This document shows positions 1,938 to 5,396 of a stretch of 5,396 nt of DNA, piece by piece (the stretch's first letter is position 1; each line of letters starts with the position of its first letter). The stretch lies in IMG/VR virus record IMGVR_UViG_2778261244_000001; one strand, given 5' to 3'. Below the pieces are notes generated by a model. It was not told where the DNA came from, searched no databases, and saw nothing but the letters and a program-made list of their open reading frames with translations. The translations under genes were made by a program, and so were the position numbers. Source of the DNA: a virus (lineage: Duplodnaviria; Heunggongvirae; Uroviricota; Caudoviricetes).

Positions 1938-2267
1938 ATGTGCTGTGGCAGCCGCATGTTCTGGTTCGATAAGTCTGACGAACGGGCGATATTCAGCGAT
2001 ATCAGAAAAGAAGGATACACATTACGCAATGGGAGACGCTTGATTATCAGCCCTGACATTATCGCAGATTTTCGTGCATTATCATTTGCAGACGCATCTT
2101 TTTCGATGGTTGTATTAGACCCTCCGCATCTTGAGAGTGTTGGTGATAACGCCTGGATGGGAAAGAAATATGGACGGCTGAATAAAGATGCCTGGCGTGA
2201 TGATTCGCGACAGAGATTTAAAGAAGCCTTTCGGGTGTTGAGGCCGCACGGCGTTCTGATTTTTTAA
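1938..2267 (+). pseudogene. DNA (N6-adenine/N4-cytosine-type) methyltransferase-like fragment, 109 codons, DPPH motif; probably truncated
   Basis: Translation contains ...ADASFSMVVLDPPHLESVG... (D-P-P-H at nt 2118-2129), resembling motif IV (hydrophobic run + DPP[YFW]) of amino-methyltransferases, then ...RVLRPHGVLIF. Frame ends at TAA 2265-2267 but stays open for 29 more codons (WNETQIPVSQILAL...) to TAA 2355-2357. Too short for a full enzyme; no motif I (FxGxG) seen. Confidence 0.4.
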
Positions 2268-2426
2268 TGGAATGAAACGCAAATACCGGTAAGCCAGATT
2301 CTGGCACTGACAGACAGAAAACCTGTTATCTGTCAACGAACAGGGAAAAAACGATAAAACCCACTGGATTATTTTTATGAAAGAGGCATCCAGTGAGTAG
2401 ATTCGTAAGGCTACAGATACGTATAT

Positions 2427-2444
2427 CTGAATAATTAAATTCAG
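2427..2444. promoter_or_regulatory. Inverted repeat CTGAAT-N6-ATTCAG in an AT-rich intergenic stretch; candidate operator
   Basis: Perfect 6-bp arms at 2427-2432 and 2439-2444, about 85 bp upstream of the ORF at 2530. No clear sigma70 -35/-10 pair could be assigned. Confidence 0.2.
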
Positions 2445-2500
2445 TTCTGTAAATAAAATTTAATCCTTAACCGGATGGATTTCTGCACCCTCAGAACATC

Positions 2501-2532
2501 AGGAGGCCGCCCGAAAGGGCGGTAGTGAAATG
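2501..2532 (+). promoter_or_regulatory. Structured translation-initiation region: AGGAGG, then a 6-bp all-GC stem with GAAA loop, then ATG
   Basis: AGGAGG 2501-2506; stem CCGCCC 2507-2512 / GGGCGG 2517-2522 with GAAA loop; ATG at 2530. Linear SD-ATG spacing is about 23 nt, but about 7 nt if the hairpin forms. No U-tract follows, so not an intrinsic terminator. Confidence 0.3.
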
Positions 2533-2640
2533 CGAAAGTTCAAAATTATTATTGAAACGGGAATAGCTGGTGGAGATTTTGAGGATGTATTCGAAGTGGA
2601 CGATGACGCAACACCTGAGGAAATTCATGACGGAGCATAA
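2530..2640 (+). CDS. Small acidic ORF, 36 aa (MRKFKIIIETGIAGGDFEDVFEVDDDATPEEIHDGA)
   Basis: ATG 2530, TAA 2638-2640, preceded by the SD-hairpin arrangement. Too short for compositional support; may be a remnant. Confidence 0.3.
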   Translation: MRKFKIIIETGIAGGDFEDVFEVDDDATPEEIHDGA

Positions 2641-2881
2641 GAAATTTTCTTTAACTACTGCAATTACTCATACCACGAAATAAAAGACGATGAGGAAGAA
2701 CAAAGTGGCTGATTTTTGTTCAGCTAAATATAACATCAGTTTTGAAGAGCGGGATGAACTATTAATGGACTATGGTGAGTTACGCGGTGGAAGTGCTGCT
2801 GATGTCGAATCCTAGCGTGATGACTATGAAGCGGGAAAAACTCCGGTCGAAGCATATTGTGATGAGTGGGGCGATGAATGA
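2627..2881 (+). pseudogene. Small ORF interrupted by in-frame TAA (2681-2683) and TAG (2813-2815); reading frame otherwise continuous to TGA
   Basis: ATG 2627 preceded by GAGG with 6-nt spacing. Frame reads MTEHKKFSLTTAITHTTK-TAA-KTMRKNKVADFCSAKYNISFEERDELLMDYGELRGGSAADVES-TAG-RDDYEAGKTPVEAYCDEWGDE-TGA. The last 21 codons have no start codon of their own and end in an ATGA overlap with the next gene. Confidence 0.35.
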
Positions 2882-3165
2882 GCGAGATTAATTATCAGGA
2901 AGGGCATGAAACGGCGGGGCAAGCAAAACCAGTGGCATGGCGATATCGCTACGTGAAAAAAGGCGTTACGGACTTTCAGGGGAAGTAGTGGTCTGGTGAC
3001 TGGAAATATGTACCGAAAAAAGAGGATTGTAACGACAGGCCGAACTATCAAATTCAGGCCTTATTCACTGCCTCACCAGTCCCAGTTACATCAGAAGAAC
3101 TGGTTAAAGCTGTGCACTTTTATGAACAACTAAAACGCGAAAATCCACCAACATCCGGCAACTAG
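2878..3165 (+). pseudogene. Small phage-like ORF interrupted by one in-frame amber codon (TAG 2986-2988); 36 aa + stop + 58 aa in one frame
   Basis: ATG 2878 with purine-rich GGGG 6 nt upstream, and ATGA overlap with the upstream frame. Translation MSEINYQEGHETAGQAKPVAWRYRYVKKGVTDFQGK-TAG-WSGDWKYVPKKEDCNDRPNYQIQALFTASPVPVTSEELVKAVHFYEQLKRENPPTSGN-TAG. The downstream part is protein-like; the antisense ORF looks like junk. Confidence 0.45.
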
Positions 3166-3419
3166 ATTAATGGATTAACTATGTCGGTTAAACGACCAGC
3201 CAACTGAAAAAGCGGAAACCTGATTACAGGTTGCCAGATAAGGCAATGAGCTACCTGGCGCGGAACGGACTGATAAGTATGGGGAATGTTTTACGATGAA
3301 CCTTTAGACTAAAGAGTTTGTAACGCTATGTAAGTGATTTTTTCTGGTTTAGATATTTATATGTCCGGCCAAATTGAGGTGTGTTTAAATGTAATTGCAC
3401 ATTGATTGTAGGAGGAATA

Positions 3420-3599: not shown

Positions 3600-3829
3600 A
3601 TACAGCGAACTCCATTGGTTTAGTTGGATATTTACTGTGCTGGACAAAAACGGTTTGCGGGGAAATCTTAGTTAAGTAGAATGACTGCGGGTGCTTGAGG
3701 CTATCTGCCTCGGGCATGGACACCAACGGCAGATAGAGAAAAGCCCCAGTTAACATTACGCGTCCTGCAAGACGCTTAACATTAATCTGAGGCCAATTTC
3801 ATGCTAGACACATGTAGGTTAGCCTCTTA

Positions 3830-3845
3830 CGTGCCGAAAGGCACG
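3830..3845. other. Stable hairpin CGTGCC-GAAA-GGCACG (GNRA-type tetraloop), not followed by a T-tract
   Basis: Perfect 6-bp stem with GAAA loop, about 90 bp upstream of the transposase start. Same architecture as the hairpin at 2507-2522. Confidence 0.3.
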
Positions 3846-3904
3846 GAGAAGCAGGCTATTGTTAACACCAAGCTGTAATGTCCCCTTTGAACCATTCTAA
3901 AATG

Positions 3905-3936
3905 TCCCCAGACAATTCTCTGGGGGATTTTTCATG
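3905..3936 (+). promoter_or_regulatory. Hairpin that places the transposase Shine-Dalgarno (GGGGGA) in its 3' arm
   Basis: TCCCCA 3905-3910 pairs with TGGGGG 3921-3926 (5 Watson-Crick pairs plus one G-U), 10-nt loop; ATG at 3934 lies 7 nt after the stem. RBS occlusion is a known way IS elements limit transposase translation. Confidence 0.35.
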
Positions 3937-5247
3937 ATCAAAGAGACTGTTACGATGAGTCATAAGGAACTCCACCGACTTCAGATTATTCAGGAACAAG
4001 CTGCGGCACGCATTGGCATTTCTATTCGGCAGGTTAAACGTCTGGTGCAACGGTATAGAAATGAAGGGCCTTCTGGTCTGGTTTCCCACCGACGTGGAAA
4101 GCGTCCTAATAATTCCTTTTCTACTGAATTCAGAGCAACAGTAATTTCACTCCTCAAAGGCCGTTACGCTGATTTTGGACCTACGTTTGCGTGCGAAAAA
4201 TTGCGCGAGATACACGGTTTATCTTTATCCGTTGAAACTCTCAGAAAGTGGATGATAGAAGTGGGGTTATGGCGTGAACGCCGTCGTAAAATTGCCCGTA
4301 TATATCAACGCCGCATGCGACGACCATCTTACGGTGAACTGATCCAGATTGATGGCTCACCTCATGACTGGTTTGAAAATCGAGGCCCCAGATGTACACT
4401 GATCGTTTTCATTGATGATGCCACCAGTGCGTTGATGGCGTTGCGTTTTGTGCCTGCTGAAACAACCCGGGCTTACATGGAAACCCTCCGGGGTTACCTT
4501 AATGATCATGGCGTACCGCTCGCTCTCTACTCTGATAGACACAGTATATTCAGGGTAAATAACCCAGAGCGGGAAGGTGAGCTGACCCAGTTCACTCGTG
4601 CGATAAAGACACTGGGCATCGAGCCAATCCATGCCAACAGCCCGCAGGCAAAAGGGCGGGTAGAGCGCGCCAATCAGACACTACAGGACAGGCTGGTCAA
4701 AGAAATGCGGCTTCAGAATATCAGTGATATTGAAACAGCAAATGCATGGTTGCCGACCTTTATTGAAGCCTATAACAACCGGTTCGCTACGTCGCCTCGT
4801 ACTACTGATAATGCTCATCTTGATGTGCACCATTCTGAAGAGGAACTGGGTTATATCTTCAGCCTACAGGCGAAGCGCGTTCTGTCTAAAAATCTCACTT
4901 TCCAGTACAAAAGCAGTGCGTTTCAGGTACGCAGTGAGGGCCGGGGATATCGACTTAGGCATTCGGTTGTTACTGTATGCGAGAACTTTGACGGTGAAAT
5001 TAACGTTCTGTATGACGGGAAAGCGCTGGGCTGGGAAAAGTATGTTGATGGCCCGGAGCCTATACCACTGGATGATGAAAAGAGTGTCCATGAACGAGTG
5101 GATAATGCCCGTATTGATTTACGCTCAAAATACTATGTTAAACCTAAAGCTGACCATCCCTGGCTTACGCGCCGAACGCAAAGTCATCAGCAAGTTAAGC
5201 CCCCGAAGTTACCTAAAAAGAAGCCTGATCCCGATAAAAAAGATTGA
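3934..5247 (+). CDS. DDE transposase (rve/integrase-core fold), ISNCY (IS1202-group) / IS481-like, 437 aa
   Basis: Intact 1314-nt ORF. N-terminal helix-turn-helix-like region (AAARIGISIRQVKRLVQRYRNEGPSGLVSHRRGKRP). Candidate catalytic residues in IQIDGSPHDW / VFIDDATS, LALYSDRHSIF, and GRVERANQTLQDRL (the G-x-V-E-R-x-N signature of retroviral-integrase-type transposases). Basic C-terminal tail. The ATG at 3955 (MSHKELHRLQII...) is an alternative start. Confidence 0.9.
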   Translation: MIKETVTMSHKELHRLQIIQEQAAARIGISIRQVKRLVQRYRNEGPSGLVSHRRGKRPNNSFSTEFRATVISLLKGRYADFGPTFACEKLREIHGLSLSVETLRKWMIEVGLWRERRRKIARIYQRRMRRPSYGELIQIDGSPHDWFENRGPRCTLIVFIDDATSALMALRFVPAETTRAYMETLRGYLNDHGVPLALYSDRHSIFRVNNPEREGELTQFTRAIKTLGIEPIHANSPQAKGRVERANQTLQDRLVKEMRLQNISDIETANAWLPTFIEAYNNRFATSPRTTDNAHLDVHHSEEELGYIFSLQAKRVLSKNLTFQYKSSAFQVRSEGRGYRLRHSVVTVCENFDGEINVLYDGKALGWEKYVDGPEPIPLDDEKSVHERVDNARIDLRSKYYVKPKADHPWLTRRTQSHQQVKPPKLPKKKPDPDKKD

Positions 5248-5279
5248 AACCAAGATCGATTCGGTTGAGTGCATTGATC

Positions 5280-5396
5280 CTACCCACGTAATATGGACAC
5301 AGGCCTAAGCGAGGTTCTGGTTTTCAAATTGTTCCGGACTGAGGCCGCCACACCAACTGTGCCGCCGCCACCGATTGTAATCACATTCGATATAAT
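5280..5396 (-). CDS. Possible 3' end of a minus-strand gene entering from the right edge (C-terminal 38 codons, glycine-rich: ...NVITIGGGGTVGVAASVRNNLKTRTSLRPVSILRG)
   Basis: Open frame from the window edge to TAG at 5280-5282; higher GC than the neighbouring DNA. Too short to identify; could be chance. Confidence 0.2.
   Translation of the reverse strand: MISNVITIGGGGTVGVAASVRNNLKTRTSLRPVSILRG

Follow-up and report, generated by a model that had tools for sequence, protein, structure and literature searches.

The left end of an IS1202-family element in a prophage hok locus: two putative transposase-binding sites and a predicted hairpin over the transposase Shine-Dalgarno

Positions 3860 to 3933 of the window, a 5,396-nucleotide stretch of viral DNA (IMG/VR record IMGVR_UViG_2778261244_000001), probably form the left end of an IS1202-family (ISNCY, ISEsa1-like) element and the translation-initiation leader of its transposase gene; the element lies in a prophage hok locus. 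The two 9-bp repeats of this leader are very probably, by analogy with related elements, the cores of two 19-bp transposase-binding sites that mark the left end. We lean slightly toward the further reading, drawn from the likeness to IS10 and IS50, that the inner binding site also serves as an anti-Shine-Dalgarno arm and thereby keeps transposase translation low. In the proposed mechanism, a matching pair of sites at the right end would let transposase molecules assemble on both ends, as TnsB does on Tn7, and the C-run of the inner site, together with the bases that follow it, would base-pair with the G-rich Shine-Dalgarno and with the nucleotides between it and the ATG. In transcripts that enter from outside (here from the hok promoter) or that start within the first ~45 bp of the element, the ribosome-binding site would be shut, and the shut site would keep transposase synthesis low.

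The window derives from an Escherichia coli Qin-type prophage, and its features are collected in Table 1. Positions 3689 to 3859 align base for base with the intact hok/mok/sok locus of phage vB_EcoS-640R1; the alignment ends at 3859, and hok is interrupted at the AT of its ATG start codon. At least 775 E. coli genomes share most of 3600–5396, including the junction between the hok leader and the left end. The mok frame, which begins at ATG 3801, now crosses the junction into the element and stops at a TAA (3876–3878) inside the outer repeat, 56 nt upstream of the transposase ATG. A second exact 9-bp direct repeat, TTAACATTA, occurs in the sok/hok leader at 3750–3758 and 3776–3784, 26 bp apart. 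Farther upstream, at 1938–3200, lies a decayed run of prophage genes, with a SAM-dependent methyltransferase ORF that ends early at 2267 and PGAP-flagged ORFs that contain internal stops or frameshifts (DUF7167, hypothetical protein). No tRNA or tmRNA was found in the region.

Table 1. Coordinates of the features in the window (window numbering; element positions count from the left terminus)
Feature	Position	Strand	Details
Exonuclease, YdfD and DicB genes	27–1854	minus	
5' half of hok/mok/sok, the insertion target	3689–3860	+	Rfam sok RF01794, 104 bits, full model, ends at 3860
Left copy of the target-site duplication, 15 bp, GGAGAAGCAGGCTAT	3845–3859		In E. coli W5-6 and Shigella, found again directly between the right terminus and the hokD ATG
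Left terminal inverted repeat, 26 bp, 5'-TGT start	3860–3885	+	Flank divergence; 19/26 match to the right end beside relE
Outer 19-nt unit, AATGTCCCC at 3877–3885	3867–3885	+	Putative transposase-binding site 1; element positions 18–26
Inner 19-nt unit, AATGTCCCC at 3901–3909	3891–3909	+	Putative transposase-binding site 2; element positions 42–50
RNA hairpin (predicted)	3899–3932	+	Core stem 3905–3912/3919–3926; loop 3913–3918; A/U extension 3899–3902/3929–3932
Shine-Dalgarno GGGGGA	3922–3927	+	In the hairpin 3' arm; 7–12 nt 5' of ATG 3934–3936
IS1202-family (ISNCY) DDE transposase, 437 aa	3934–5247	+	NF033594; Pfam helix-turn-helix and rve_3
IS3 end	5275–5396		27 bp past the transposase stop; IS3-free genomes diverge at 5274/5275

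The reading frame downstream of the leader matched the profile NF033594 (transpos_ISNCY_2) with 455 bits against a cutoff of 250, over profile positions 7–365 of 368, and the next best profile, IS481, reached 126 bits, under its own cutoff. A sequence search of the PDB gave a marginal match to retroviral integrase only. Read from the translation, the DDE residues are D140, D201 and E244, with Q251 at E+7 (AKGRVE(244)RANQTLQ(251)DRL); the D140/D201/E244 pattern suggests that E244 is the catalytic glutamate, and a Q instead of K/R at E+7 is named as a signature of IS1202-family transposases in PMC10132070. Intact relatives have 446 amino acids; the window copy has lost SLNRHITQE of the first helix-turn-helix through an in-frame deletion of 27 bp after codon 21 (3996/3997), with short TCAGGA repeats on either side. 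E. coli 1303 has an annotated IS3 transposase at this locus. Since the helix-turn-helix is deleted and IS3 interrupts the element, the window copy appears to be a relic: the Qin copy is most likely immobile here, with its leader intact. Most E. coli genomes with this locus have no IS3 and carry instead the cargo region, from flxA onward. The annotated gene ydfW (49 aa, 5098–5247) is the C-terminal end of the transposase frame.

To place the ends, we collected ~150 loci that encode transposase relatives by scanning genome and metagenome collections, compared a reference locus with the genome-collection loci by blast and inspected the junctions in both collections. All 51 distinct left flanks switched to 5'-TGTTAAC at the equivalent of window 3860, which on this comparison of sequences, and by the break in hok homology, is the left terminus. 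The first-pass annotation had suggested that the repeats could be subterminal binding sites marking the left end of an insertion sequence. The terminus does lie close to them, the repeats falling at element positions 18–26 and 42–50, and the sites do mark a left end, are conserved and are mirrored at the right end; because the terminus is at 3860, however, the outer copy sits within the 26-bp terminal inverted repeat and is not subterminal.

The repeat AATGTCCCC is exact in its two copies, both on the plus strand, and has no other copy in the window. The copies had also been described as tandem, which they are not, because they lie 24 bp apart from start to start, with a 15-bp spacer between them. 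Their likeness extends to the 19-nt units, which are identical at 15 of 19 positions, and the 3' part of the inner unit forms the 5' arm of the hairpin. An exact 9-mer repeat within 40 bp was found in 49% of dinucleotide shuffles of the whole window and in 0.6% when the same test was applied to the 77-nt leader alone; as a bare whole-window statistic the repeat is not remarkable. We judged it real because it is conserved in relatives, not by chance statistics. Two (A/G)ATGTCC.. copies occur at the same left-end positions in relatives down to 38% protein identity, with motif copies at element positions 18–26 and 42–50 in enterobacterial, Hahella, Chromatiales, Rhabdochlamydiaceae, Massilia, Elusimicrobia and candidate-phylum relatives. 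The relatives at 38–50% identity that have both copies include Castellaniella, Uhrbacteria and Terriglobales in addition to Rhabdochlamydiaceae, Massilia and Elusimicrobia.

The same arrangement was seen in mirror image at right ends, which lie outside the window. Hahella sp. SMD15-11 contains at least 10 identical 1449-bp copies of a related element (62% protein identity to the window) with a left end of TGTTAGCCCAAAGCTGTAATGTCCCC...TCTAAAATGTCCCC and a right end of ...GGGGACACTTTAG...GGGGACATTTTAGAATTGGGTTGACA, and duplications of 15–16 bp flank the copies (ten copies). In the Hahella right end, the motif is inverted at positions 18–26 and 43–51, and the E. coli right end beside relE has the same geometry, with two motif copies at 18–26 and 43–51. 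The right end reads ...TTGACA in E. coli W5-6, C. freundii, Scandinavium and Hahella.

These ends are of a textbook kind, in a family whose end architecture was published in 2023. The architecture of the IS1202 family (formerly the ISNCY/IS1202 group), including the ISAjo2 and ISAba32 types, is described in Harmer, Pong & Hall 2023 (PMC10132070) and in Siguier et al. (bioRxiv 10.1101/2022.12.17.520857). The present element resembles the family in having one large DDE transposase, which carries helix-turn-helix domains at its N-terminus and a Q at E+7, in outer ends of the form 5'-TGT...ACA-3' (the window left end having TGT at 3860–3862), in an imperfect terminal repeat of ~26 bp with a second copy of its inner 19 bp near each end, and in inserting in one orientation, at a constant spacing of one duplication length from a recognized sequence. 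Judged by duplication length, it is most readily likened to the ISTde1 subgroup (15–16 bp here and 16–17 bp in that subgroup). It differs from the family in that the gap between the sites is 5 bp instead of 7–10 bp, in that its target is the hok translation-initiation region or a GGCAA motif and not a dif/Xer site, and in that the present unit has 1.7–3 kb of cargo ending in a toxin–antitoxin pair. According to PMC10132070, the IS1202-family transposase is TnsB/MuA-like, and the binding-site reading of the family's end repeats rests on the analogy with Tn7 TnsB; from this analogy we infer that transposase binds the two sites. As in Tn7, each end has directly repeated, here putative, transposase-binding sites, the terminal one adjoining 5'-TGT. 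The present element has two sites per end, whereas Tn7 has three or four; it has no TnsA, TnsC, TnsD or TnsE genes, and its duplications are 15 bp as against 5 bp in Tn7.

The leader downstream of the outer site is predicted to fold into a hairpin with the arms UCCCCAGA (5') and UCUGGGGG (3'), joined by seven Watson-Crick pairs and one G-U pair across a 6-nt loop; the A/U extension is weaker and only possible. Folding of 3895–3940, which the first-pass annotation had proposed as a check, gave this hairpin with a free energy of −13.1 to −14.5 kcal/mol (z = −2.06; 4 of 200 shuffles equally good), and the hairpin was still predicted in longer sequence contexts. The earlier claim that its 3' arm is the transposase Shine-Dalgarno was borne out, the arm holding the GGGGGA; relatives have GGAGG or GGGAGG in the Shine-Dalgarno position. 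The probability of the core pairs was 0.96–1.0 in every modeled transcript with a 5' end at or before 3906, including those from the hok leader, and the Shine-Dalgarno was unpaired with a probability of 0.08–0.12 in transcripts that include 3906 and of 42–59% in those with a 5' end at 3908–3910. When the upstream leader was shuffled with its composition kept, 21% of the shuffles sequestered the window initiation region equally well. Judged on the window alone, the hairpin is statistically weak. It has no match in Rfam, where the sole match is the sok family upstream of the junction.

No sigma-70 promoter was found in 3600–4100 at the threshold of the tool, which fits a weakly expressed or read-through-dependent transposase gene. 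The candidates read by hand, TTGAAC-N18-GACAAT and the −10-like TGTAAT or TAAAAT inside both sites, were rejected as too weak.

The pairing was examined in relatives by folding 12 distinct short-leader variants, which belong to Hahella, to Chromatiales metagenome-assembled genomes and to several genera of enterobacteria. In 12/12 variants, the Shine-Dalgarno region paired with the 3' part of the inner site, with the Shine-Dalgarno window 68–100% paired in all of them and at least 77% paired in the 11 that keep the G-run (the exception being locus L018). The arrangement that the first-pass annotation expected for translational dampening of transposase is thus conserved, and we infer from it, with IS10 and IS50 as models, that the hairpin lowers translation. 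The stems vary: they are CCCCAGA/UCUGGGG in the window type, CCCCAG/CUGGGG in L138 and CCCCG/CGGGG with a 7-bp A/U-rich outer extension in the L031 type, and the Hahella stem, GUCCCCUUUUG/CAGGAGGGGGC, has a free energy of −19.7 kcal/mol (z = −3.9). More distant relatives have longer leaders, in which the pairing partner of the inner site varies or is hard to make out; at times it is the start codon, as in L060 and L065. The initiation region was more paired than the mean of its shuffled upstream leaders in 18 of 20 family leaders; this combined statistic overstates the support because the leader sequences are akin.

Column-wise covariation in a MAFFT alignment was tried and rejected because the alignment was out of structural register, with loops that differ by 1–7 nt; the folds of single sequences and the shuffle control were used for this reason. 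We also dropped, as evidence of selection, the 100% leader identity between the window and copies that are ~92% identical (89.6% by local blastn), because near-identity extends over the first ~300 nt as one block, a pattern suggestive of recombination.

The first alternative to weigh is that the hairpin has no selected role and is a by-product of a C-rich site near a G-rich Shine-Dalgarno in a short leader. Because the C-rich binding site adjoins the G-rich Shine-Dalgarno, their pairing is almost automatic, and CCCC and GGGG are each constrained by a function of their own; the share of shuffled upstream leaders that sequester the initiation region as well as the window does and the modest z value given above are what a by-product would produce, and the reading frame of L018 is intact although its G-run is lost. 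However, the pairs beyond CCCC:GGGG are compensatory between lineages (AGA/UCU, AG/CU, G/C and UUUUG/CAGGA), and G-U pairs make the sense fold stronger than the antisense fold in 9/12 variants, which argues for a feature of the RNA rather than of the DNA. Moreover, in the distant relatives L060, L061 and L065 other sequences join the inner site to the start region by pairing, and the strongest stem belongs to the actively multicopy Hahella element. On balance, a by-product seems unlikely.

A second alternative takes 3905–3926 together with the following AUUUUUC mainly as an intrinsic terminator against hok-promoter transcripts. This segment meets the intrinsic-terminator consensus (a stem of 8 pairs that include 5 G-C pairs, a 6-nt loop and a tail with five U) and is the only terminator-like site that the consensus scan gave in 3600–4100; the A-tract at 3899–3902 mirrors the U-tract, and the element lies directly downstream of the active hok promoter. 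The U-tract is not conserved, however: Scandinavium-type leaders have GAUAUUUC in its place, Hahella and Chromatiales have none, and the pairing is kept in all of them. In the window, an A stands between stem and tail and the tail runs into the start codon, and a terminator 8 nt upstream of the ATG would also silence the element itself unless it had a promoter farther downstream, of which none was found. We regard a mainly terminating role as quite improbable. Since the U-run is shortened or absent in relatives that keep the stem, sequestration of the Shine-Dalgarno would be the common denominator; termination is compatible with the main explanation and the two are not exclusive. A third alternative, a DNA-level inverted repeat whose 3' arm would be a third, inverted transposase-binding site and an operator over the gene start, is very improbable, for although the 3' arm GGGGATATTTT is identical at 10/11 positions to the reverse complement of the inner site GGGGACATTTT in some relatives and a palindrome of the motif occurs downstream of the transposase gene in related loci, the ATGTCC core is lost in the 3' arm (GGACAT being replaced by GGATAT, GGATTT, GGCAAT or GCCGTG), several of the pairs are G-U and would be mismatches in DNA, and the antisense folds are 4–10 kcal/mol weaker in most variants.

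The anti-Shine-Dalgarno reading of the inner site has its closest parallel in IS10 and IS50, in which transposase initiation signals are inhibited by fold-back, with protection from outside transcription, as cited in bioRxiv 10.1101/2025.01.24.634351. In each case, a sequence near the end can base-pair with the ribosome-binding region of the transposase mRNA, so that transcripts containing this sequence would be translated poorly; here the 3' arm covers the Shine-Dalgarno. In IS10 and IS50, the native start lies inside the structure and only read-through RNA folds; in the present element no promoter was detected and no antisense RNA is evident, and, in distinction to IS10 and IS50, the 5' arm is the putative transposase-binding site itself. 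In term searches of PMC10132070 and bioRxiv 10.1101/2022.12.17.520857, we found no hairpin that sequesters the Shine-Dalgarno for the IS1202 family. The addition made here is a modest one, namely that in this clade the inner binding site would double as an anti-Shine-Dalgarno arm.

The start codon at 3934 is followed, seven codons downstream and in frame, by a second ATG at 3955, and PGAP chose 3934 in one record and 3955 in another. Because the seven codons are conserved as protein down to 60% identity and a Shine-Dalgarno lies upstream in every relative, ATG 3934 is likely the true start. A GATC (Dam) site at 3936–3939 overlaps this start codon (ATGATC); it is probably incidental, because relatives read ATGGCA or ATGCGC.

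The first-pass annotation had taken the element for a simple insertion sequence, a description that did not hold. Instead, from the loci compared, the true mobile unit appears to be a larger, cargo-carrying transposon of 3.3–4.6 kb, defective in the window copy, which consists of the left end, the transposase, variable cargo, a toxin–antitoxin pair and the right end. The unit coordinates are 4261–7534 in locus L001, 7001–11600 in L156, 2927–7201 in L034 and 2891–5465 in L066. E. coli W5-6 has no IS3, and there flxA, ydfV, relB and relE lie downstream of the transposase; past relE come an inverted match to the left end (19/26) with an ACA end, then GGAGAAGCAGGCTAT, then the hokD ATG. A 4600-bp unit with the duplication GGAGAAGAAGGCCAT occupies the hok locus of a C. 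freundii IncFII plasmid in the order mok, transposase, cytochrome b, CDF transporter, relB, relE and hok, and its RelB and RelE have the same protein accessions as those of E. coli. Scandinavium has a 4275-bp unit with the duplication CATTAAGCTGCAAAT; judged from ORF translations alone, it seems to carry genes for a GrpB-like protein, a Vat-like acetyltransferase and a TacAT-like pair of GNAT toxin and DUF1778 antitoxin. In L066 the duplication is GGATTCAC(GA/AG)CGGAT. The duplications are 15 bp in four enterobacterial units. On these sequences, insertion of this element into hok seems to have produced the relBE-hokD arrangement of E. coli.

All copies have in common a 1.6-kb module, which showed no convincing right inverted repeat and whose boundary varies between loci; candidates for a right inverted repeat at the module end, sought by hand, matched at 10/22 positions or worse. 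A good right end (19/26, ACA) with perfect or near-perfect 15-bp duplications was found only 3.3–4.6 kb from the left end. PMC10132070 quotes ISEsa1 from ISfinder as an element of 1609 bp with a 439-aa transposase, 15/22 inverted repeats and no duplication detected. Several genomes and plasmids carry the PGAP name "IS1202-like element ISEsa1 family transposase" for this gene, a likeness by label, and the conserved ~1.6-kb module of the relatives begins at the same left end. The present element differs from ISEsa1 as described in that its right end and duplications are found only 3.3–4.6 kb away. The position of the true right end, past the cargo, may account for the absence of a duplication from the ISEsa1 entry and, more generally, for the apparent lack of target duplications in ISEsa1-type elements.

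At the end of the conserved module, ~190 bp past the transposase stop, sits a palindrome of the motif, AATGTCCGC-N12-GCGGACATT (~4510–4545 in L014 and L021, 5826–5856 in L001), which could be a terminator or the relic of an older right end. The TTGACA of the right end is a perfect outward −35 hexamer directly 5' of E. coli hokD (L001 7529–7534) and is also present in Hahella. None of the abutted right-end/left-end junctions inspected has a −10 to go with this hexamer; a junction promoter made of this TTGACA and the left end was rejected for its wrong spacing in L018 and L143 and the lack of a good −10.

Diverged hok leaders, severed at the start codon or at most 2 bases from it, make up the majority of the 51 distinct left flanks. 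GGCAA lies immediately 5' of the 15-bp duplication and is also present in several non-hok flanks (L034, L131, L006 and L138). Nearly all insertions have the same orientation; the one in L017 is opposite but uses the same 15-bp target window. Arrays in which a right end is followed by a left end have gaps of 15 bp in L143, 17 bp in Hahella (L023) and only 10 bp in L018, and the gaps of L143 and L023 equal one duplication length. These flanks look as if the element selects its targets in one orientation, at a set spacing from a short motif. Such targeting of hok leaders and GGCAA has a parallel in the ISAba32 subgroup, which targets dif; for the other IS1202 subgroups, no target is known according to PMC10132070 and bioRxiv 10.1101/2022.12.17.520857. 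Searches of the literature gave nothing specific on the function of ISEsa1 or on hok-targeted IS1202-type insertions.

Taken together, these observations allow a tentative reading, which we hold as a real possibility short of an even chance, that the element is a hok-seeking transposon carrying a toxin–antitoxin pair. Its left end would land 15 bp after GGCAA in the hok leader, in the orientation that places the promoterless transposase gene under the hok promoter, and the inner-site hairpin would gate the borrowed hok transcription. The element would have delivered relBE, creating the relBE-hokD (relBEF) operon of the E. coli Qin prophage, and ISEsa1 would be just the left part of the larger unit. 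If true, the targeting would be a second target specificity in the IS1202 family, with hok leaders in place of dif sites, and relBE of E. coli K-12 would be transposon cargo, with identical proteins on an IncFII plasmid. It would also bear on the spread of toxin–antitoxin modules and on the inactivation of chromosomal hok genes, and this surrounding hok/relBE context could outweigh the left-end finding in importance. The left end was found on 619 plasmids in PLSDB.
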